Both the position numbers and the translations under genes were made by a program. Below the pieces are notes generated by a model, which worked only from the letters and a program-made list of their open reading frames with translations, did not search any database and was not told the origin of the DNA. From UHGV virus genome UHGV-1682877: a stretch of DNA of 64,000 bases; one strand, 5' to 3'. Within the stretch, counting starts at the first letter, position 1. Each line of letters starts with the position of its first letter. Positions 18,830 through 28,699 of the stretch are shown piece by piece. Source of the DNA: a virus.

Positions 18830-20053
18830 TTGGCTTTTGATTTTAAACCTATTACAAAAATTTGTTTAAATATTACAGAAATGTGCCAGTGTGCTTGTCC
18901 TTTTTGTTTTGCAGAATATCACCCTCATAGAATATCTTACCAAGTTGCAAAGGATGCGGCAGACTGGATTATTAAAAATTCAGAATTAACAGGAGAAGTA
19001 GGATCTATCGGTTTTTTTGGCGGTGAACCGCTTCTTGAATGGGATACGATTATTGTTCCACTTACCAAGTATATTAAAGATGAGCGAGGATTAAAAGATT
19101 TTGAATTGGGTGTTACGACAAATTGTCTTTTGCTTGATGAAGAAAAGTTAAAATTTATGAAAAAATATGACTTTGGTTTACTATGCTCTATTGATGGAGC
19201 AAAAGAAACTCAAGATTATAATAGACCTTGCCGCAATGGACAAAGTAGCTTCGATATTATTGATGAAAAGATTCCTTTAATTCTAAAATATTTTCCAGAT
19301 ACTTTAATGCGTTCTACTATTATTCCCGCAACATGTGAACATTATTTTAAAAATTTAGAGTATGGATGGAATAAAGGATTCTATCATAGTTTTACAATTA
19401 TTAATCAATTTGAAGAATGGCCCGAAGATAAAAGAAAAATTCTTGAAGAGCAAGTTAGAAAATTTTCTAATTATTTAATTACATGTTTTAGAGAAGGATT
19501 GCCTTTTATGCGCCAACGAACTCTTGAACAAGCAATTAATAAAATAGTTGGAACAAATCTTCATTTTGCTCAAGGTAATGTTGAAAGAATTAAATTTGAT
19601 GATTTAGGAAGATGTTGTGGACTTGGTAGTGGATATGGTGCTATTAATTATGAAGGAGACATTTTTACTTGTCAAGAAGCAGTAAGCCGAGAAAAAGATA
19701 AAAATATTTTTTATATTGGAAATATTTATACTGGTATTGACAAAGAGCGTCAACAAAAATTATTTGATGATGTATATGCTAATGGTGGAAATGTTTATAA
19801 TTCTGTCGATAAAAATAAGTGTAAAGAATGTCCAATAGAAGCTAGCTGTAATATGAATAGTTGTTTAGTTAATAATTATTTAGAAAGACAATTATTTGAC
19901 ATTCAAGCAGATGCAATGTGTTGGTGGAATAATCTTATGGCGAAAGAAGCTCAATATATTTGTTATATACTTGGTACAGAAAATAATGAATATTTTAAAG
20001 ATTATTTTAAATGGGTAATTACCTCACAAGGAGGGACACTTAGCAATGATTGA
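18830..20053 (+). CDS. radical SAM enzyme with C-terminal SPASM-like Cys cluster
   Basis: CQCACPFC (CxxxCxxC), GGEPLL, C-terminal CKECPIEASCNMNSC; TTG start 18830 after RBS aaggagg. Confidence 0.75.
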   Translation: MAFDFKPITKICLNITEMCQCACPFCFAEYHPHRISYQVAKDAADWIIKNSELTGEVGSIGFFGGEPLLEWDTIIVPLTKYIKDERGLKDFELGVTTNCLLLDEEKLKFMKKYDFGLLCSIDGAKETQDYNRPCRNGQSSFDIIDEKIPLILKYFPDTLMRSTIIPATCEHYFKNLEYGWNKGFYHSFTIINQFEEWPEDKRKILEEQVRKFSNYLITCFREGLPFMRQRTLEQAINKIVGTNLHFAQGNVERIKFDDLGRCCGLGSGYGAINYEGDIFTCQEAVSREKDKNIFYIGNIYTGIDKERQQKLFDDVYANGGNVYNSVDKNKCKECPIEASCNMNSCLVNNYLERQLFDIQADAMCWWNNLMAKEAQYICYILGTENNEYFKDYFKWVITSQGGTLSND

Positions 20054-20795
20054 GTATATTCCTATTTCTAACAATTTAGCAGAAACTGTAGCAGAAATTG
20101 CTAATAAAAAATTTGAAGGCATGGTGCGAGAAGGAATAAATAATGGCGGAATTGTTGCTTTTGCAGATGGTTGTACTGGTTGCGAAAGTGGATGTTCTGG
20201 TTCTTGTACTGGAAGCTGTAGTAGCAGTTGTAAAGATAGTTGTAAGGATACTTGCAAAGATACCTGTAAAGGAAGTTGTAAAAACGGATGTAAAGAAGGG
20301 TGTAAAGGAAAATGTACTGGTAGCTGTCAATCTAGCTGCGAAAATGCCTGCGCACCTGGGTGTCAGTATAATTGTGAAGATGGTGGGCAAACAGTAGAAA
20401 CTTACAATTCTACAAGGCAGTATACTTTTGATGGTTGGTCTAGTACCGTAAGTCCAAACTCTACTATTAATATTTCTGCTGATGATTGGAATACCCTTGC
20501 AGGTAAAGTTAAAGGAGCAGCTCGTGCGGGTTGGGAGAAAAATGTAAGTGTGACAAGAGCATCTTCTGGAGGATGGATTACTGCTGCAATATATAATTCT
20601 ATGGTTAATGGATTAAATTCTTTGGGTAATTCTTTAGGAAGTGTTGGTTCTTCGACTTACATTGAAGCAAGTCATTTTTCTAAATTAACCAATGCATTAA
20701 ATAAAGCAACTATTCCAAAGAAAAAATGCTGCGAGTTAAAAGAATATTGTATGGAAAGTTGCAATGAAACAAGAGGCCCATTAACTGGTTCTTAA
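20046..20795 (+). CDS. Cys-repeat protein, candidate substrate of upstream radical SAM enzyme
   Basis: about 16 consecutive CxxxC units (CKDSCKDTCKDTCKGSC...), 8 nt overlap with upstream gene. Confidence 0.6.
   Translation: MIEYIPISNNLAETVAEIANKKFEGMVREGINNGGIVAFADGCTGCESGCSGSCTGSCSSSCKDSCKDTCKDTCKGSCKNGCKEGCKGKCTGSCQSSCENACAPGCQYNCEDGGQTVETYNSTRQYTFDGWSSTVSPNSTINISADDWNTLAGKVKGAARAGWEKNVSVTRASSGGWITAAIYNSMVNGLNSLGNSLGSVGSSTYIEASHFSKLTNALNKATIPKKKCCELKEYCMESCNETRGPLTGS
20170..20370 (+). repeat. 12 bp-periodic coding tandem repeat
   Basis: tgtaaagatagt-like units. Confidence 0.6.
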
Positions 20796-20811
20796 CTAGG
20801 ACACTGTTAAA

Positions 20812-20842
20812 TTGAAAATTTTAAAAAAATATTATATAATAT
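20812..20842 (+). promoter_or_regulatory. repeated promoter family copy (first of tandem pair)
   Basis: ttgaaa-17-tataat atatatagaaagttaaggaaag. Confidence 0.5.
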
Positions 20843-20897
20843 ATATAGAAAGTTAAGGAAAGAGTAATAAAAATTTCTTGAACAAAATAAATTAATT

Positions 20898-20926
20898 TGA
20901 AAAAATAAAAAATAAATGATATAATA
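20898..20926 (+). promoter_or_regulatory. repeated promoter family copy (second of tandem pair)
   Basis: gatataatatatatagaaagttaagagaggag. Confidence 0.45.
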
Positions 20927-20956
20927 TATATAGAAAGTTAAGAGAGGAGAAAATTT

Positions 20957-21151
20957 ATGAATAAGATTATTTTTAAAGCTAAGAATTGGACTATGACTTT
21001 TAGAACTAGACAGCAAGCCCTTAATTTTATCCGTAAAAATTCCATTAATCCTTATACTGCCAATATTTTGGTTCTTATTGGTACTCAGGATGTATTTCAT
21101 TTGGGTTCTCCTCGTGCAGATCAGTATTTTGGACTGAAAAGAAAAAATTGA
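20957..21151 (+). CDS. hypothetical small protein
   Basis: ORF track. Confidence 0.4.
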   Translation: MNKIIFKAKNWTMTFRTRQQALNFIRKNSINPYTANILVLIGTQDVFHLGSPRADQYFGLKRKN

Positions 21152-21176
21152 AAATTTAAAAAAAATATGATATAAT
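21148..21176 (+). promoter_or_regulatory. promoter for tRNA island 2
   Basis: ttgaaa-17-tataat. Confidence 0.5.
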
Positions 21177-21263
21177 ATTTAAGGAAAGACTTGTACAGCA
21201 AATAAAGCTTAAAAGCACTTGACTGGTAATCAAGAAGAAAATGAGTCTTGCTTAAATATTCAT

Positions 21264-21349
21264 GTGGGCGTGATGAAATAGGAAAACATATCGCACTTAA
21301 AATGCGCTGCTAATCTAGCTTGTGGGTTCGAGTCCCATCGCCCACACCA
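21264..21349 (+). tRNA. tRNA-Leu (anticodon TAA)
   Basis: acceptor gtgggcg/cgcccac, loop cttaaaa, long variable arm, CCA. Confidence 0.65.
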
Positions 21350-21350
21350 T

Positions 21351-21390
21351 CTTTAAAACTGATACTCTTTACTATTAGTTTTAAAGATAA
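21351..21390 (+). other. perfect 12 bp inverted-repeat hairpin between tRNAs
   Basis: atctttaaaact ... agttttaaagat. Confidence 0.5.
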
Positions 21391-21413
21391 CAATGAACTT
21401 GAGTTTACTGATA

Positions 21414-21491
21414 TGCGTCTGTAACTCAACTGGATAGAGTAACTGCCTTCTAAGCAGTAAGCCAGGGGTTCGAGTCCCTTCAGGCGTACCA
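21414..21491 (+). tRNA. tRNA-Arg (anticodon TCT)
   Basis: loop cttctaa, T-arm aggggttcgagtccctt, CCA. Confidence 0.65.
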
Positions 21492-21676
21492 AGCAGAACT
21501 ATAATAGGCAACAAAAGGAAATAGCTGATGTGAAAGGCATCTTGTCTTGCTGACATGACAATAAACTTTGAACGGGCGTATAATGCGTATCGTGCCTGCG
21601 GGTGTAGAGTCAGAAAAGTAGGGGAATAATTGAGGAGCAGCTATAGGTGAGGCCCCACCTCCACCTTCCTTAATAT

Positions 21677-21768
21677 GGGGCAATGGCAGAGTTTGGCTTA
21701 TTGCACTTGTCTTGAAAACAAGCAAACTAGCAATAGTTTCACTGGTTCAAATCCAGTTTGCCCCGCCA
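21677..21768 (+). tRNA. tRNA-Ser (anticodon TGA)
   Basis: acceptor ggggcaa/ttgcccc, loop cttgaaa, long variable arm, CCA. Confidence 0.65.
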
Positions 21769-21772
21769 ATAA

Positions 21773-21846
21773 GCAGGTATAGTTTAATGATAGAACTCTG
21801 GACTTCCACTCCAGCGATGCGGGTTTGATTCCCGTTACTTGCTCCA
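21773..21846 (+). tRNA. tRNA-Gly (anticodon TCC)
   Basis: loop cttccac, T-arm gcgggtttgattcccgt, CCA. Confidence 0.65.
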
Positions 21847-21909
21847 TAAAGATACTCACAGCAATTTATTTTTTATAATGGGTATAAAAAAATAAAGTAT
21901 CTTGTATTT

Positions 21910-21985
21910 GCTAACGTGGCGCAACAGGTAGCGCAGCGGCCTTGTAAACCGCAGGTTAAGAGTTCAAGTCTCTTCGTTAGCTCCA
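21910..21985 (+). tRNA. tRNA-Thr (anticodon TGT)
   Basis: acceptor gctaacg/cgttagc, loop cttgtaa, CCA. Confidence 0.65.
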
Positions 21986-21987
21986 AT

Positions 21988-22063
21988 GGTTCGCTAGTTC
22001 ATTAGGTAGAACACTTGCCTTTTAAGCAAGATGTGCTGGGTTCAAATCCCAGGCGAGCCACCA
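21988..22063 (+). tRNA. tRNA-Lys (anticodon TTT)
   Basis: loop cttttaa, T-arm ctgggttcaaatcccag, CCA. Confidence 0.7.
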
Positions 22064-22437
22064 TTAGTCTTATCATACAGACGTAAAATAAATGAGTACC
22101 CCAGATAATGCTGAACTGGGTATCCGGGTATCGGGAGAATTAGTCTGGCAACTGTTGAAGCGACGATACTGCGTGACCAGGCATAAGGGCGACCTAAGTC
22201 GTTAGCTATGGGTAAACAGGTTGATAGCCGCATAGTAAAATGTTTCCTTGCGTCATTAAAATGCAAGGCGTTATAGGAGAGACGGCGGAGCATTACTCAT
22301 CTCCACTCCTTCTGCTACGAGAAGTAGAAAATCAAGGCTTCTGAGAAATGCTAATGAGAATGGTCAACCTCTGATTAAAAAAGGACTAAAGCTAGCTTAG
22401 GTTTTAGGTTATCCTCCTTACGAGGGAAAACCTTATT
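22064..22437 (+). ncRNA. structured non-coding region, candidate novel ncRNA
   Basis: ~370 nt with no RBS-supported ORF, locally GC-richer, multiple hairpins (ccttgc/gcaagg, cttct/agaag, nested ggtt-cctc/gagg-aacc). Confidence 0.3.
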
Positions 22438-22522
22438 TGCCAGAATGTTGGAATTGGTAGACAAAGAAGTCTCAAAAACTTTCGCTTTATGCGTGCGGGT
22501 TCGAATCCCGCTTCTGGTACCA
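22438..22522 (+). tRNA. tRNA-Leu (anticodon CAA)
   Basis: acceptor gccagaa/ttctggt, loop ctcaaaa, long variable arm, T-arm gcgggttcgaatcccgc, CCA. Confidence 0.65.
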
Positions 22523-22594
22523 TTATATTTTTAAATTATTTATAAAGACCTTAACAGCAAAGACTTGGACAGTAAATCCGTAGCTTAAAGTTGC

Positions 22595-22640
22595 GCAGGT
22601 TCAAATCCTGCCCTCCACACCATATGTGGAGGTAGAGAAG
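22595..22640 (+). other. orphan tRNA T-arm plus permuted acceptor-like hairpin
   Basis: gcaggttcaaatcctgc then cctccaca-ccata-tgtggagg; no matching 5' half. Confidence 0.35.
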
Positions 22641-22734
22641 TGGTTAAACTCCGCGGAACCAAAAACAAATGGTCTAGGAATTATTTCTCTCTTGCCTAAG
22701 AGAGAAAACTAAAAAACAAAAGGAGAAAGTTATT

Positions 22735-24258
22735 ATGGAAAATAAGATGCTTAATATTTTGAAGGAAAAGAATACTCATTCTATCACTGAGAACGGCGGT
22801 TTGACTTATAATTCTACTATGAATGGAATTATGGATTTGTTTGCTCTTGGTGGTGCTTATCGAAATCGCTCAGATGATGATTGTATTTTTCTTTTTAAGA
22901 AGGCTTTTGAGGAAGATATTTCTTATGCTTTGAAGTGTCTCTTTTATTTGCGAGACGTACGCGGTGGACAGGGAGAACGCAGATTTTTTAAGGTCGTAAC
23001 TTCTTGGTTGGCAGTTAATCACACCGAGGAAATGCGTAGAAATCTGAAGTATGTTCCTGAGTATGGTCGCTGGGATGATTTGTATGCTTTTGTTGATACT
23101 CCGCTTGAGGCAGATGCTTTTAAGACTATGTATCATCAGCTTGCTCTTGATGTTCAGTGTAAAACTCCTTCTCTTTTGGCTAAGTGGTTGAAGTCTGAAA
23201 ATACTTCTTCTGCAGAATCTCGTATGCTTGGAGCTAAAACCAGAATGGCTTTTAATATGTCTCCTAAGCAGTATCGCAAGATTCTCTCTATTCTTCGTGA
23301 AAGAATTAGAGTTTTGGAAAGACTGATGAGTGAAAACCGTTGGGATGAAATTGAATTTGATAAGATTCCTTCTAAGGCAGGTCTAAAGTATCGCAATGCT
23401 TTTGCAAAGCACGATATTGAAAGAGAAAAGTCTAATAAGGTAACTTATGAAGAGTTTGTAAAGGATTCTAATACTAAGGTCAATGCTGATACTTTGAATC
23501 CCGCAGATGTAGTTCATGCTGTTGTTTCTAAATTTCCCTATTATAGAGGAAATTTTAATGGAACTGATGTGGAGAGAGCTGCACTCAATAAGTATTGGGA
23601 TAATCTAAAGGATTATTTTAATAATGCTGTTTTTGACGGTGTTGCTGTCGTTGATACTTCTGGTTCTATGTGTGGTTTTTATGGTAGTGAGAAAACTATT
23701 GCACCTATTGATGTAGCTATTTCTCTTGGTATGTATTGTGCTGAGAAGTGTAATCCCAATTCTCCCTGGTATGGACATTATATTACTTTTTCCCGAACTG
23801 CAAGATTGGTACCTGTTGAAGGTATTGATTTTGTTGATAAGGTGCGTAGAATTTATCAAAAGAATCTTTGTGAGAATACCAACATTAAAAGTATTTTTGA
23901 TTTGCTATTGAGCAATGCTATTAAATATAATATTCCTAATGAAGAAATGCCTAAAAACATTGTAATCATTAGTGATATGGAATTTGATTATTGCGCTGGT
24001 TACTATAATAGTGATGAATACAAGTCTGAAATGGAAAAGATTATGCAAGTTTGGAACTCTCATGGTTACACTACTCCACATTTGATTTTCTGGAATGTTG
24101 ACGCTCGAAATGATAATATTCCCATGAAGATGAAGGATGGTATTACTTTTATTTCTGGTTATTCTGCGGTAACTTATGAAATGTTGATGACTGGTAAAAC
24201 TGGTTTTGATTTGGTTTTGGAAAAGTTGAACAATAAGAGATATGAGGTAATCAAGTAA
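22735..24258 (+). CDS. vWA/MIDAS-domain protein with helical N-domain (DUF2828-like; possibly TROVE/Ro60-like)
   Basis: DTSGSM MIDAS motif near residue 305; N-terminal ENGGLTY...DLFALGGAYR...RDVRGGQGERR. Confidence 0.5.
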   Translation: MENKMLNILKEKNTHSITENGGLTYNSTMNGIMDLFALGGAYRNRSDDDCIFLFKKAFEEDISYALKCLFYLRDVRGGQGERRFFKVVTSWLAVNHTEEMRRNLKYVPEYGRWDDLYAFVDTPLEADAFKTMYHQLALDVQCKTPSLLAKWLKSENTSSAESRMLGAKTRMAFNMSPKQYRKILSILRERIRVLERLMSENRWDEIEFDKIPSKAGLKYRNAFAKHDIEREKSNKVTYEEFVKDSNTKVNADTLNPADVVHAVVSKFPYYRGNFNGTDVERAALNKYWDNLKDYFNNAVFDGVAVVDTSGSMCGFYGSEKTIAPIDVAISLGMYCAEKCNPNSPWYGHYITFSRTARLVPVEGIDFVDKVRRIYQKNLCENTNIKSIFDLLLSNAIKYNIPNEEMPKNIVIISDMEFDYCAGYYNSDEYKSEMEKIMQVWNSHGYTTPHLIFWNVDARNDNIPMKMKDGITFISGYSAVTYEMLMTGKTGFDLVLEKLNNKRYEVIK

Positions 24259-24268
24259 ATAGTATTTT

Positions 24269-24297
24269 AAGAGAGGTAAAATTACCTCTCTTTTTTT
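24269..24297 (+). terminator. rho-independent terminator
   Basis: agagaggtaa/ttacctctct hairpin plus TTTTTTT. Confidence 0.65.
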
Positions 24298-24312
24298 ATA
24301 AGGAGGATTAAA

Positions 24313-25374
24313 ATGATATTATTAAATGATGATAATAGACACAGAGATTTTACAGGTGTAACTCGTTTTCACAATGCAGGTTATTTTGGAGAAAGAGTAA
24401 ATGCCGCAAGTGGAGAAACCTGGGATGTTAATAGATATAATCCAGATAATTTAGTAAGAAATTGCTTAAAGGATAAACAATTTTCAGATGAACATCCAAT
24501 AAATACTGCGGCAACATTTTTTCAAGTAGCTCCAAAAGCTCATCTATTTATGCTTTATTCCATTGATGGCAGTTATGGTAGTGGAGATAATTATAACTCT
24601 AAATTTTTTAATGAATCAGTAGAAATTATTGAAAAATATAATATTACTAATATGTTTACCTCTTTAAATTGTAGTAGACATACTAAATTTTTTGAAGATT
24701 TAAAAAATTGGTATATTAAACATCCTAGTTTTAAACCCTTTTGGTGCGCAGGAAATGATTCTTCTAAAAAATATAATCCAATTATGGAAATTGAAGAAGT
24801 AATTGGTGTAGCCGCTTATACTTTAATGGTAAATGGTACAGTAAATCCTGCTTATTATTCTAGTATTAGTAGTTATGTAGACTTTTCTGCACCTAGTATG
24901 ATTTATTTAAATCCGCAAGCTACAAAACCAGACGCAGCAACTTATTCCAATTCTGGTACTTCTTTTTCTACACCTTGGTTATGTGGAATGAGCTGTTTAG
25001 TAGATGATTTCTTTATTGATAAAAAAGGATTACCTCTAACAAGAGAAGGAATGATTCAATTCTTTAAAGATAATTGTAAAGATATAGGCGATAAGGGTAT
25101 TGATCCAAAAACAGGATTTGGCGCAGTAATTTTACCTGAACCAAATTCTATTGATATTGATAAATATTATAATATTGGGAGGACAAATATGAGTACATTA
25201 GATAAATTTAAAGATAAAAATGATATTTCTAATTGGGCTAAAGCAAGTATTGAATGGGCTGTTAATACAGGTATTCTTCAAGGTGACGATAAAGGCTATC
25301 TTTTACCCAAAGCTTACCTAACTAGAGAGCAAATGGCAGTTATGTTAGAGCGTTTTAAAAATATTATAAAATAA
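24313..25374 (+). CDS. subtilisin-like serine protease with C-terminal SLH-like wall-binding domain
   Basis: SNSGTSFSTPW catalytic Ser motif; C-terminal WAVNTGILQGDDKGYLLP...LTREQMAVML. Confidence 0.6.
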   Translation: MILLNDDNRHRDFTGVTRFHNAGYFGERVNAASGETWDVNRYNPDNLVRNCLKDKQFSDEHPINTAATFFQVAPKAHLFMLYSIDGSYGSGDNYNSKFFNESVEIIEKYNITNMFTSLNCSRHTKFFEDLKNWYIKHPSFKPFWCAGNDSSKKYNPIMEIEEVIGVAAYTLMVNGTVNPAYYSSISSYVDFSAPSMIYLNPQATKPDAATYSNSGTSFSTPWLCGMSCLVDDFFIDKKGLPLTREGMIQFFKDNCKDIGDKGIDPKTGFGAVILPEPNSIDIDKYYNIGRTNMSTLDKFKDKNDISNWAKASIEWAVNTGILQGDDKGYLLPKAYLTREQMAVMLERFKNIIK

Positions 25375-25380
25375 TTTTAA

Positions 25381-25410
25381 GGGAGTCAAAATGACTCCCT
25401 TTTTATTTTT
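25381..25410 (+). terminator. rho-independent terminator
   Basis: gggagtca/tgactccc hairpin plus T-run. Confidence 0.65.
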
Positions 25411-25479
25411 TTAAAAAAATATTATATAATATATATAGAAAGTTAAGGAATAAATAAATAAGAAAGAAGTTGAAATTTT

Positions 25480-25749
25480 ATGATTTATAGAAAAAGCAAA
25501 TACAGTAAAGATCAGACTGCAATTTGGCAAGGTGAAACTGCGGTTATTCTTGCTCAATCAGCAGAAGCTATGACAATAGATGAAATTAAAAACAATAGTA
25601 TTCAATTAACAGGTGTTTCTACTCAAAAAATGGCTAGGATTCTTGGGCATTTGATTGAAATGGGTATGGTAACAAAAGCAAAAAGCAAAAGTGGAAAAAT
25701 GGTCTATAAATCTTTGGCAGTAATGGAAATGCAAGGTTATGAAATTTAA
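25480..25749 (+). CDS. hypothetical protein
   Basis: ORF track. Confidence 0.4.
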   Translation: MIYRKSKYSKDQTAIWQGETAVILAQSAEAMTIDEIKNNSIQLTGVSTQKMARILGHLIEMGMVTKAKSKSGKMVYKSLAVMEMQGYEI

Positions 25750-25768
25750 ATAAAGGAGTTTGATATTT

Positions 25769-27037
25769 ATGGCATACTATGGTTTAGTAACTAAAATTGA
25801 AAATGTAAGAAAAGACCCTAATTCTGATAGACTCTATTTGGCTGATTGTTTTAGAGAAGGAGTTATTGTAGGCCCTAATATGAAGGAAAGCGAGTTGGTT
25901 CTTTATCTTCCTACTGATGGAGCTATTGAGCGTTGGTTTGGTGATGAGTTTAAACTTTTCCGCAAGAATTTAGATGGTACCGCGCAAGGTGGTTATTTGG
26001 AAAATAATGCTCATATTAGAGCAATTAAGCTAAGAGGTAATGAATCTTCTGGTATTGTTATTTCTTATTCTACTATTGTTGAGCATTTTGGTGAGCAAAA
26101 TTGGAAAGATGGCGATCAGGTCACTGAAATTAATAATAAGCTATTTTGTTATAAATATATTCCTAAACCTTCGGCTATTCCTCGCACTACTCCTAAAACT
26201 TCTTATAAAGGTCGTAAAGCAGCTGGAATTAAGTATCCTGATTTTGCCATGCATATTGATACTGCCCAATTAGCTTACAATCTTGGAATTTTTAGACCTG
26301 GAGATAAAATTAATCTAACCCTTAAAATGCATGGAACTAGCCAGCGTAGTGCATATACTTGGGCAGAATATCCTATGTCTTGGTTTAGAAAGCTATTTCA
26401 CATGAAACCTAAGAGAAAGTTGCAGTATGTTTTAGGTACTCGTAGAACTGTTGTTACTACTGATGGGGTAGGTTATTATGGTAATGACAAATTTAGATTT
26501 AGTCACCATGAAGCTTTAAAACCTTATCTCGATGAAGGTATGGAAGTTTTTTATGAAGTAGTTGGTTGGTATGGAGCAAAAGAAAATGAAACTATTATGC
26601 CAATTGTAGATAATAGTAAAATTAATGACAAGAAATTTATGAAAAAGTTTGGTAAGTATACTACTTTTTCTTATGGTTGTACTCCTGGTCATTCTGCAAT
26701 GTGGATTTATAGAATTACTTCTCATAATGGTGAATATGAATATTCTCCAGAGGAAATTACTACTTGGTGTAATGAATATGGTTTTAATCGTGTTCCTATT
26801 ATTGAGGATTTTGAATTTACTACTGTTGATGACTTGCTCGCTAAAATTGACAAATATTTTGAAGATATTGTTGACCCAGTTGGTTTAACTCATGTTAAAG
26901 AAGGTGTAGTAGTTAGAATTGCTAATAGACGTACTTTTACTGCATTAAAACAAAAAACCTGGGAGTTTAAAGTCCTTGAAGGTCTAGTTAAAGATACTGA
27001 AACCCAGCCCGATATGGAAGAAGCACAGGAGGTTTAA
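25769..27037 (+). CDS. Rnl2-family RNA ligase with N-terminal tRNA-binding OB domain
   Basis: N-terminal LVTKIENVRKDPNSDRLYLADCF (tRNA-binding fold); KMHGTS motif I like T4 Rnl2 KIHGTN; EGVVVR motif IV; KQK motif V. Confidence 0.6.
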   Translation: MAYYGLVTKIENVRKDPNSDRLYLADCFREGVIVGPNMKESELVLYLPTDGAIERWFGDEFKLFRKNLDGTAQGGYLENNAHIRAIKLRGNESSGIVISYSTIVEHFGEQNWKDGDQVTEINNKLFCYKYIPKPSAIPRTTPKTSYKGRKAAGIKYPDFAMHIDTAQLAYNLGIFRPGDKINLTLKMHGTSQRSAYTWAEYPMSWFRKLFHMKPKRKLQYVLGTRRTVVTTDGVGYYGNDKFRFSHHEALKPYLDEGMEVFYEVVGWYGAKENETIMPIVDNSKINDKKFMKKFGKYTTFSYGCTPGHSAMWIYRITSHNGEYEYSPEEITTWCNEYGFNRVPIIEDFEFTTVDDLLAKIDKYFEDIVDPVGLTHVKEGVVVRIANRRTFTALKQKTWEFKVLEGLVKDTETQPDMEEAQEV

Positions 27038-27039
27038 AT

Positions 27040-27489
27040 ATGACTTTAGAAATTATGCACAATGACATGATGCAGGCTTTGAAGAATGGTGATACTCAAA
27101 AGAAGAATGTACTTTCCAATATGATTGGTGAAGTACAAAAAGCAGCAATTACGCCAAAAGGCAGAATTGAAATTACCGAAGAGCTTGTTAATAATACTTT
27201 AATCAAGTATCAAAAGATGATTCAAGAAATGATTGATACTTGTCCAGAAAACCGCAAAGAGTTATTTATTCAATATAATCTTGATATGGCTGTTGTAAAG
27301 CAGTATGCACCACAACTTCTCACTGACAAAAAAGCAATTAAAACTCAAATTGAAAAGATGCTTGCAGAAAATGAGCTTGATGCAATTAAGGCAAATAAAG
27401 GTAGAGCAATGAAACTTTTTGCTCCTGTTTTTAAGGGTAAGGCAGATATGAAAATTGTTAATCAAATTGTGTCGGAGGTAATGACCTAA
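27040..27489 (+). CDS. YqeY/GatB-domain protein
   Basis: architecture matches YqeY family, C-terminal GKADMKIVNQIVSEVM. Confidence 0.6.
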   Translation: MTLEIMHNDMMQALKNGDTQKKNVLSNMIGEVQKAAITPKGRIEITEELVNNTLIKYQKMIQEMIDTCPENRKELFIQYNLDMAVVKQYAPQLLTDKKAIKTQIEKMLAENELDAIKANKGRAMKLFAPVFKGKADMKIVNQIVSEVMT

Positions 27490-27490
27490 T

Positions 27491-27670
27491 ATGTTTCATT
27501 TAATAATGACGATTATTTGGGGTATCTTAATGTGTGTTAATGGAGTTTTGCTATGTGAAACAATTTTACACAATAGATATAAAGAAAAGAAAATGCGTAT
27601 TTTCTGGTTCCTTTTTTGCGTATTTTGGTTTATTTTTGAAATCTTGCGGCTCGGAGGCTTTATTCTTTGA
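27491..27670 (+). CDS. small hydrophobic protein (about 59 aa), putative
   Basis: ATG-initiated ORF below track threshold; two hydrophobic segments. Confidence 0.3.
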   Translation: MFHLIMTIIWGILMCVNGVLLCETILHNRYKEKKMRIFWFLFCVFWFIFEILRLGGFIL

Positions 27671-27885
27671 AAATTGTAATTGATAAAAAAGATTTTATGG
27701 AATATATTCGTGCTATGGTAGATAAGGATTTTGACAATTTTATGTTTGCAAATCCTTATGCGACGAAAGAAGATTATATTAATTTATATTATTCTTTTGA
27801 TACAATTCATAATTTAGATGATATTTGTGAAGAAGAATATTGTAAAAGAATTATTAATGGTGAAATAGAAGAAATTGAAGATTGA
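27667..27885 (+). CDS. hypothetical protein
   Basis: ORF track; start may be ATG about 27699. Confidence 0.35.
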   Translation: MKIVIDKKDFMEYIRAMVDKDFDNFMFANPYATKEDYINLYYSFDTIHNLDDICEEEYCKRIINGEIEEIED

Positions 27886-27890
27886 AAGAA

Positions 27891-27937
27891 TTAAGGGCAA
27901 AGATTAAGATCTTTTGCCCTTAATTTATTTTTTTAAA
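27891..27937 (+). terminator. rho-independent terminator
   Basis: ttaagggcaaa/tttgcccttaa hairpin plus T-run. Confidence 0.6.
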
Positions 27938-27985
27938 AATTTATATTATAATATATATAGAAAGTTAAGAAAGGAATTGATATTT

Positions 27986-28699
27986 ATGAATAAGAGTAAA
28001 GTTTATTGTTTTACTGACCTTCATGGCAATTCAAATTTGTTTAAGCAGATTAAAAATTTCATTCAAGCAGAAGATAAAGTGTTCGTGCTGGGTGATGTAA
28101 TTGACAGAGGGACAGAAGGTTGGAAAATACTTAAAGAAATTTTAAAAGATGAAAGATTTACTCTTCTTAAAGGAAATCATGAACAAATGTTAGTAGATTC
28201 TGGAAGAGAATTTTTAAAAAATGAAAGATGTCTATATGGAGATGATATTTATCGTCACATGAATAATGGAGGTTTATCTACTTTACTAGACTGGTCTAAA
28301 GAAAAAAATGCTATTGAGTATTTAAATTTAATTAATAAACTTCCAGTTTATGAACAATACACTAATAAAAATGGAATTAAAATTCATTTAAGTCATGCAG
28401 GTTTTTCTCCTAATAATATTTCTGGTGATGAATTTGATTTTCTTTGGAATAGATTACATTATAAATTTAGATGTTTAATTAATCCAAATGAATTAATTAT
28501 TCATGGCCATACCCCAATTCCTCTAATGATAGAAGATATAGGAGAATTTCGCAATCCTCCCAAATATGAAGGTGGAGCTTGTTGGTATAATAATAATCAA
28601 AAGGTTAATCTTGATTTAGGTACTCATTGGAGTAAGCAAATTATCCTTTTTGATTTAGATACTTTTGATGAACATATCTTTTCTGCTCAAGGAGAATAA
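27986..28699 (+). CDS. calcineurin-like metallophosphoesterase (PP2A/ApaH-like)
   Basis: FTDLHGN, VLGDVIDRG, KGNHE, IIHGHTP. Confidence 0.8.
   Translation: MNKSKVYCFTDLHGNSNLFKQIKNFIQAEDKVFVLGDVIDRGTEGWKILKEILKDERFTLLKGNHEQMLVDSGREFLKNERCLYGDDIYRHMNNGGLSTLLDWSKEKNAIEYLNLINKLPVYEQYTNKNGIKIHLSHAGFSPNNISGDEFDFLWNRLHYKFRCLINPNELIIHGHTPIPLMIEDIGEFRNPPKYEGGACWYNNNQKVNLDLGTHWSKQIILFDLDTFDEHIFSAQGE

Follow-up and report, generated by a model that had tools for sequence, protein, structure and literature searches.

A phage radical SAM/SPASM enzyme and its cysteine-array partner: a putative pair for RiPP-like crosslinking of a virion-type protein

Does a radical S-adenosylmethionine (SAM) enzyme encoded by a phage act on the cysteine-rich protein encoded directly behind it, and, if so, which bond would it make and where would the product go? 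The question is raised by a 64,000-nucleotide stretch of the virus genome UHGV-1682877 (the whole of which is called the window below), in which a radical SAM/SPASM gene overlaps the gene of a 249-residue protein with a long array of regularly spaced cysteines. An earlier note on this DNA had described an enzyme with a CxxxCxxC cluster and a C-terminal SPASM-like cysteine cluster, its stop overlapping the start of a protein with about 16 consecutive CxxxC units, and had taken the two for a pair in the style of ribosomally synthesised peptides that are modified after translation (RiPPs). Each of these observations was confirmed, and the two genes very probably do encode an enzyme and its substrate: the profiles closest to the enzyme are those of thioether maturases, the family PF27846 is assigned to homologues of its partner, and the pair is conserved, apparently coupled and exchanged as a unit. 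We infer three things: the array serves as substrate, its bonds are thioethers, and the protein forms part of the particle. Taken together, RiPP-like thioether crosslinking of a full-size, virion-associated protein is given slightly better than an even chance, a grade this high because the parts of the reading are correlated.

The gene pair and its joint inheritance

The genes and their signals are laid out as follows:

18830..20053, + strand: radical SAM/SPASM enzyme gene, 407 amino acids, with a TTG start and a TGA stop at 20051-20053
20046..20795, + strand: Cys-array protein gene, 249 amino acids, putative substrate (PF27846 on homologues; weak direct matches)
20046..20053, + strand: stop/start overlap of 8 nt, ATGATTGA, between the Cys-array ATG at 20046 and the enzyme TGA
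20028..20035, + strand: Shine-Dalgarno sequence AAGGAGGG of the Cys-array gene, within the end of the enzyme gene and ten bases 5' of the ATG (direct reading)
18816..18822, + strand: Shine-Dalgarno sequence AAGGAGG, 7 nt 5' of the TTG at 18830 (direct reading)
18784..18803, + strand: predicted terminator-like hairpin, 8-bp stem and T-rich tail, 5' of the enzyme gene (consensus scan)
18698..20809, + strand: exchangeable two-gene cassette of intergenic leader, radical SAM gene and Cys-array gene (blastn against the sister contig L033)

The enzyme could also be read as 419 residues from a TTG at 18794 in the same frame; that codon lies within the terminator-like hairpin, so the start at 18830 is favoured and the longer reading is less likely. 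The overlap of the two genes indicates, from the arrangement of their ends, probable translational coupling, and the stop/start overlaps of related loci are typically 1, 4, 8, 10, 14 or 19-20 nt. Promoter-like sites were no more frequent than in shuffled sequence in the consensus scan, and GC content does not set the cassette apart as foreign.

The conserved gene-pair synteny that had been suggested as a check was found in related phages. When IMG/VR was scanned with the alignment of the enzyme, 80 loci came back with identities of 24-46%. Many of them are near-duplicates, so that they stand for fewer independent lineages; all family-size figures are lower bounds. A Cys-rich open reading frame (ORF) lies beside the enzyme gene in 69 of the 80 (directly downstream on the same strand in 51, upstream within 2.5 kb in 16 and downstream within 2.5 kb in two). 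Three of the remaining 11 loci end at a contig edge and eight have no Cys-rich ORF by the criterion used; some of these eight are broken by stop-codon recoding or have a partner that is poor in cysteines but shares the helical domain. As a bacterial control, 100,044 species genomes were scanned, the clade being defined by enzymes scoring at least 340 bits on the hidden Markov model of the clade. Cys-rich partners accompanied 29 of 32 clade prophage loci, mostly in Clostridia, compared with about two of 48 more distant radical SAM/SPASM genes.

Comparison with the sister contig L033 gives the clearest evidence that the pairing is meaningful. In blastn, its identity to the window is 96.9% for 13009-18697 and 94-96% for 20810-25450. 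The region in between keeps only two short stretches of about 70% identity and carries a divergent pair, comprising a radical SAM enzyme with 36% amino acid identity and a Cys protein in which the same beta-alpha domain has a CxxC array on either side. The genes are thus inherited and exchanged as one unit, and the breakpoints of the swap fall a few bases beyond the ends of the two ORFs.

The enzyme and its cysteine-array partner

Two groups of cysteines define the enzyme:

18884..18907, + strand: CxxxCxxC motif (CQCACPFC; C19-x3-C23-x2-C26) of the SAM-binding [4Fe-4S] cluster (direct reading)
19616..19921, + strand: SPASM region with seven cysteines, C263, C281, C331, C334, C340, C345 and C364 (alignment A1)

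Across the 19 homologues of alignment A1, the three cysteines of the first motif are nearly invariant, and the seven of the SPASM region are invariant as C263-x12-G276-x4-C281, C331-x2-C334-x5-C340-x4-C345 and C364. Their spacing is that of the canonical SPASM pattern (C-x9-15-G-x4-C...C-x2-C-x5-C-x3-C...C), which places the enzyme among SPASM proteins. The SPASM models PF13186 and TIGR04085 were not among its matches in Pfam and NCBIfam; its relatives match both. Pfam matched only the radical SAM core (PF04055, 54 bits against a cut-off of 29.5, E 2.9e-14), which assigns it to the superfamily.

Placement within the superfamily comes from NCBIfam. The top match was PapB (NF047865), at 150.3 bits over profile positions 2-323 of 330, followed by nif11-like, SCIFF, CcpM, ScfB-related, CXXX-repeat-target and QhpD maturases. 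The PapB cut-off of 340 bits is not reached by the window enzyme or by its relatives, which score 155-261 bits. The same is true of the window enzyme for the maturase of CXXX-repeat targets (TIGR04115, 95.3 bits against 350), for the SCIFF maturase (TIGR03974, 119.9 bits against 425), whose family is also excluded by a partner of 249 residues with 22 cysteines, and for QhpD (TIGR03906, 92.9 bits against 453), where the context is a phage genome and not a qhp operon; the TIGR03906 scores of the window enzyme and its relatives span 93-183 bits. The anaerobic sulfatase maturase (TIGR03942) scored 41.7 bits against a cut-off of about 349. The closest PDB chain was the thioether synthase CteB (5WGG, E 1.7e-20), with the sulfatase maturase anSME at 1e-7. 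A cofactor-biosynthesis enzyme, the class that the earlier note had named as telling against its reading, was rejected, as profile searches rank Cys-peptide thioether maturases first. Also set aside as phage relatives were enzyme matches labelled 'Bacteriophage sp.' (MT83xxxx); the one inspected, L002, is a bacterial SCIFF locus with SecDF adjoining.

Residues 4-148 of the enzyme align with CteB residues 91-241, the radical SAM core begins about ten residues from the N-terminus, and matches to families that bear a RiPP recognition element (RRE) begin at profile positions 75-96. Since the CteB alignment starts only at residue 91, the window enzyme has no N-terminal peptide-binding (RRE) domain. 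On profile and alignment evidence it is an unassigned member, without an RRE, of the clade of Cys-peptide thioether maturases that includes PapB, SCIFF/CteB and QhpD.

The partner is divided into four parts:

20046..20171, + strand: N-terminal leader-like region of 42 residues, with a YIPIS..LAE motif resembling the (I/L/V)P.(F/Y)L motif of many partners
20172..20375, + strand: cysteine array, C43-x2-C46 followed by 16 CxxxC units to C110, with 17 cysteines in register (sequence count)
20421..20711, + strand: C-terminal domain of three beta-alpha repeats, ISADDWNTL.., ITAAIYNSM.. and IEASHFSKL.. (sequence repeats and AlphaFold)
20727..20762, + strand: conserved C-terminal CC-x5-C-x3-C cluster, with C228 and C239 nearly invariant (alignment A4)

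The 22 cysteines of the protein stand at positions 43 and 46, then at each fourth residue to 110, and at 228, 229, 235 and 239, so that the array has 42 residues before it and 139 behind it. The array is not a chance feature, since a 12-nt tandem period spans 20226-20307 of the DNA, homologues at identities down to 25-45% preserve the register, and strains that are nearly identical vary in the number of complete units, by one in P0262 and by nine in P0002. In seven units an Asp or Glu stands at position +1 or +2 from the cysteine (CESG, CKDS, CKDT twice, CKEG, CENA and CEDG). AlphaFold (AF2) gave no confident fold for residues 1-119, and a predicted local distance difference test (pLDDT) score of about 30 for the array argues against a confident fold of the unmodified chain. 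Residues from about 125 to 225 were predicted confidently (pLDDT 80-95) as three helices with a short extended segment before each, in agreement with the three sequence repeats of the C-terminal domain.

Direct family matches to the partner were few. A Pfam scan with a model set lacking PF27846 returned no match; NCBIfam returned weak ones (TIGR04117, E 1.5e-4; TIGR04114, 17.5 bits against a cut-off of 20); and the PHROGs match, phrog_6085 (E 5e-8), has no function assigned. A tblastn search against GenBank phages gave no match, probably because of low-complexity filtering and divergence. PF27846 (tSAM_targ_Cxxx_rpt) is, however, precomputed on the homologues P0001-P0009 and on almost all of 234 profile matches, and is marked 'weak' on P0140, so the cysteine repeat has already been classed in silico as a radical SAM target. 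By its own repeat, the window protein would fall only marginally within PF27846/TIGR04114. The adjacency that is part of the definition of the Cxxx-repeat target family, a Cys array adjoining a radical SAM/SPASM gene, is present here.

Proposed product and competing readings

The enzyme and its 249-residue substrate would be made together from one message, and the enzyme would act on the 17 in-register cysteines in the oxygen-free cytoplasm of an anaerobic host. In the CteB/PapB family, the SAM cluster abstracts a hydrogen atom while auxiliary clusters handle the cysteine thiolates. Two papers support a mechanism of this type (PMC10177961; PMC12373016), and the window enzyme, whose SPASM domain is predicted to hold two auxiliary Fe-S clusters, may divide the work in the same way. 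The most likely product would carry intramolecular thioether links from cysteines to neighbouring side chains, forming a chain of thioether-closed rings. It would stay full-size, with a stapled cysteine stalk attached to the folded domain and its three beta-alpha repeats. Its relatives suggest that it is most likely a tail- or surface-associated component, either incorporated in the virion or mounted on it. Being insensitive to redox conditions, thioethers would survive in reducing, anaerobic surroundings, in which disulfides would be lost, and would take over their task.

The choice between virion protein and secreted peptide, left open in the earlier note, leans towards a modified full-size protein of virion type on the evidence of the relatives. 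Array-bearing proteins span 130 to 1640 residues, and the array is N-terminal or C-terminal depending on the locus (C-terminal in phAss-1, L033, L053, L058, L067, L068, L078 and P0010); in some partners it begins at residue 3. Some arrays are fused to FN3 domains and others to Hoc-like Ig arrays (phrog_10993, E 1e-82 to 1e-101). Outside their cysteines, some partners show homology to proteins annotated 'Hoc-like head decoration' in Faecalibacterium phages, where no radical SAM gene is present, and others match a 'virion structural protein' of Bacillus megaterium phages. One protein of 568 residues with a C-terminal Cys array has a weak PHROGs match to 'virion structural protein' (E 1e-6) and looks tail-fibre-like by eye. 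At several loci the pair stands between tape measure, baseplate-wedge, tail and tail-fibre genes, and the same arrays with the same beta-alpha domain recur in FN3- and Ig-array proteins inside tail operons. The tail-fibre cluster that the earlier note had placed beside the pair finds weak support within the window, where the genes immediately upstream of the pair resemble tail fibres faintly (E 3e-4 for Mtd_N, 1.5e-5 for a tail spike and about 1e-4 in tblastn against tail proteins). No signal peptide was seen by eye in the Cys protein. On balance, association with the virion is narrowly preferred.

Further observations were made on these relatives. In L085 and L086 (the Faecalibacterium phages FP_Brigit and FP_Mushu), the Hoc-like genes come directly behind the reverse transcriptase gene that belongs to a diversity-generating retroelement, and also behind tail genes, a context suggesting that the Hoc-like proteins may be tail or receptor-binding proteins, not head decorations. 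Extreme arrays of 74-77 cysteines occur in L063 (2674-4170) and L066 (2551-4050), one closing with seven HSD triplets in tandem, the other with a (PT)n linker. L083 (1856-9666), a stop-codon-recoded Hadza gut contig of 190 kb, has three radical SAM genes, one of them interrupted by an intein, and two Cys-array proteins; it shares the DUF2828 gene of the window. Among bacterial PF27846 proteins, P0156, P0163 and P0191 bear twin-arginine-type signals (SRRxFFKKAA), as would suit proteins that are modified in the cytoplasm and exported once finished.

Several findings weigh against thioether crosslinking of a virion protein, and the first group concerns the enzyme and its bond. The enzyme has no RRE and the N-terminal substrate motif is not universal. 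The window enzyme misses every curated NCBIfam maturase cut-off, those of the characterised thioether enzymes among them. No single acceptor is conserved: Asp or Glu is present in only seven of the 17 window units, and the residues between the cysteines vary by clade, from K/S/T-G-S/T in that of the window to E/Q at +1 in 82% of units elsewhere. The missed cut-offs and the lack of a conserved acceptor, together with the two or three radical SAM genes of some loci, which suggest more than one step, and the many different chemistries that SPASM enzymes perform (PMC11002830), favour a reading in which the array is still substrate or partner, but receives another modification (formylglycine, epimerisation or C-C links) or mainly binds metal or Fe-S clusters. 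Such a reading is unlikely, although it is the strongest of the alternatives. Thioether families rank first for the window enzyme and for nine relatives from other loci (PapB for seven of the nine, SCIFF or QhpD for the other two), and the sulfatase maturase lies far behind; a sulfatase-maturase assignment was also rejected because the motif C/S-x-P/A-x-R is not in the array. The inter-Cys residues are mostly D, E, N, Q, S, T and K. Threonine is an acceptor type of ranthipeptide- and QhpD-type enzymes, and other residues found between the cysteines are as well. Asp, Glu and Asn are the cases in point (PMC11002830; PMC12373016). No acceptor is conserved throughout, and a thioether is preferred over other bonds only by a modest step.

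The second group concerns where the product ends up. The folded domain of the window partner found no informative structural relative in the searches made, and the partner itself has no Ig or FN3 domain, nor any virion domain recognisable in Pfam or PHROGs. The pair of L167 lies among small early-type genes (NADAR, UDG and GIY-YIG) and not among tail genes, that of L083 has an endolysin-like gene close by, and counter-defence loci, too, typically take the form of cassettes that vary between phages with no other differences. The metagenome assembly phAss-1 is the sole clade member in 50,697 GenBank phage records, so that none of the cultured phages there carries one. A modified protein with a function at lysis or inside the infected cell, such as host takeover or counter-defence, would suit the lack of recognisable virion domains and the gene contexts just listed, but is rather improbable given the tail-operon proteins that join the same arrays and beta-alpha domain to FN3 or Ig arrays, and given that the window pair comes after tail-fibre-like genes.

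Still less probable is a classical RiPP, in which the Cys array would be the core behind an N-terminal leader and a protease would free a small crosslinked peptide, exported or released at lysis, with a bacteriocin-like or signalling role. The nearest families of the enzyme are all RiPP maturases, many partners share a conserved N-terminal motif, and a Peptidase_C39_2 (C39-like) gene lies just downstream of the partner in L083, a point that also counts against a full-size virion product. Set against this are the 249 residues of the window partner with its confidently folded domain of 100 residues, the relatives of 500-1640 residues with FN3, Ig or virion structural domains, and the arrays that start at residue 3 or lie at the C-terminus. 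An RRE is missing from the enzyme, neither an ABC transporter nor a C39 peptidase turned up among the window ORFs that were scanned, and no protease or transporter gene adjoins the pair. The leader-like region of the earlier note thus stands in part: 42 residues do precede the array, but the leader is specific to certain clades. The (I/L/V)P.(F/Y)L motif is present in many partners and absent from others, and it may have a role in recognition by the enzyme; as a universal leader it was rejected, with at least three N-terminal types among partners, one of them being the absence of any. Finally, fortuitous adjacency of an unrelated radical SAM gene and a low-complexity Cys-rich ORF is effectively refuted by a pairing specific to the clade and kept down to 24% enzyme identity, by the start/stop overlap and by the replacement of both genes together.

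A thioether-crosslinked virion protein remains the preferred reading, and the hosts give it a setting. Close genomic relatives are all in strict anaerobes (Oscillospiraceae, Lawsonibacter, Peptoniphilus, Ezakiella, Clostridium, Fervidicella and Vallitalea, mostly Clostridia, and one Bacteroidota metagenome-assembled genome), and the predicted host of phAss-1 is a member of the Clostridia. Within the window, 24313-25374 encodes a subtilase (S8) with an S-layer homology (SLH) domain, a sign that the host is probably Gram-positive and has an S-layer. More tentatively, and with somewhat less than an even chance, phages of strict anaerobes may install ladders of thioether staples in the Cys-array stalks of tail-fibre, decoration and other particle proteins, where these would replace disulfides in reducing habitats, and trade enzyme and substrate as a cassette between close phages. 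If so, virions would undergo a new kind of enzymatic modification after translation, radical SAM crosslinking would be applied to the proteins of virus particles and not to small natural products, and the hardening of exposed fibres in phages of anaerobic gut bacteria, where disulfides are unstable, would be explained. RiPP enzymology would gain an RRE-less maturase for long periodic arrays in full-size proteins, one that could serve in protein stapling, and a function would be found for the in silico families PF27846, phrog_6085 and phrog_1802, which together hold hundreds of uncharacterised homologues. Several culturable strains carry prophages with the pair, among them Peptoniphilus duerdenii ATCC BAA-1640, P. 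indolicus ATCC 29427, Lawsonibacter faecis NSJ-52, Ezakiella peruensis and Clostridium tepidiprofundi DSM 19306.

The surroundings of the pair offer observations of their own, beginning with one further feature:

18354..18692, + strand: small conserved protein next to the pair, whose membership of the system is not established, with homologues beside radical SAM genes in the large-phage lineage only

This protein had no family match in Pfam, NCBIfam or PHROGs. It adjoins the radical SAM gene only in L026, L033, L034, L038, L039 and L083, and it was rejected as a detached recognition partner because it accompanies the pair in that one lineage of large phages. A perfect 14-bp hairpin with a T-run (18251-18281) overlaps the first ATG of its 146-residue ORF (18252-18692); the real start is probably Met35, at 18354, in agreement with the start of the L083 homologue. 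A weak paralogue-like match was seen at 27908-28699 of the window.

Elsewhere in the window, 17 tRNA genes were found by ARAGORN in two clusters (10813-13823 and 21264-22522); the gene at 13040-13112 was given a four-base anticodon, 'tgaa', and no amino acid assignment. A GIY-YIG homing endonuclease gene (12359-13006) lies inside the first cluster. Directly after the second comes a set that looks like RNA repair (22735-28699), with a DUF2828/DUF7788 protein (phrog_850, 'RNA-binding protein'), an RNA ligase (25760-27037) and a NinI-like phosphatase (27914-28699). In phAss-1 (OQ749652; L001, 4950-6668), the enzyme has been annotated in two pieces, each a hypothetical protein, that meet at an in-frame TAG, and the Cys-array ORF is unannotated because TAG codons are read there as Gln (code 15).

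Comparison with known systems

The arrangement was new to the earlier note; its kind, in fact, is already captured in silico by TIGR04114, TIGR04115, TIGR04117, PF27846 and PHROGs 6085 and 1802, none with a known function. The nearest of these is the CXXX-repeat target system (TIGR04114/PF27846, TIGR04115 and TIGR04117), itself defined in silico, in which, as here, an array with a cysteine at each fourth residue is paired with an RRE-less radical SAM/SPASM maturase. To our knowledge, this system has never been characterised experimentally. The window enzyme differs in falling below the TIGR04115 cut-off and scoring higher on PapB, and the window target in being phage-encoded and carrying a folded beta-alpha domain, with relatives that have virion domains.

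PapB, the maturase of the ranthipeptide freyrasin, forms Cys-to-Asp thioethers in repeated CX3D motifs, and so resembles the window enzyme in facing many repeats of a short Cys motif; acidic residues C-terminal to several cysteines of the window array are a further likeness, as would be the series of small rings in the product. PapB joins Cys to an Asp or Glu C-terminal to it, at variable spacing (PMC12373016). In contrast, the window enzyme has no RRE, its repeat is CxxxC and not CxxxD, and its putative substrate is a protein of 249 residues and not a short leader-plus-core peptide. CteB, which acts on SCIFF (thermocellin), has SPASM auxiliary clusters and a Cys-rich substrate in common with the window pair; SCIFF precursors, however, have about 45 residues and six cysteines, and the true SCIFF locus L002 is quite different.

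QhpD is a radical SAM/SPASM enzyme that makes Cys-Asp and Cys-Glu thioethers in a subunit kept within a larger assembly (PMC11002830). Together with its substrate QhpC it is the closest functional analogy for the stapling of a structural protein, as the product stays in the assembly; QhpC differs from the window partner in that it is not viral and that its three thioethers sit within a compact subunit instead of along an extended periodic array. Phage particles are stabilised covalently by the isopeptide chainmail of HK97 and by disulfides in some capsids and tails. The role proposed here, covalent reinforcement of the virion, would be the same, whereas those bonds are autocatalytic or oxidative and here an oxygen-sensitive radical enzyme would act before assembly.

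No description of phage radical SAM enzymes with Cys-array proteins was found in the searchable full-text literature, subscription literature lying outside the search, and the phAss-1 paper does not mention the pair that this genome carries. The new aspects are the phage setting, the protein-sized substrates of virion type, a distinct clade of enzymes and the exchange of the two genes as a cassette.

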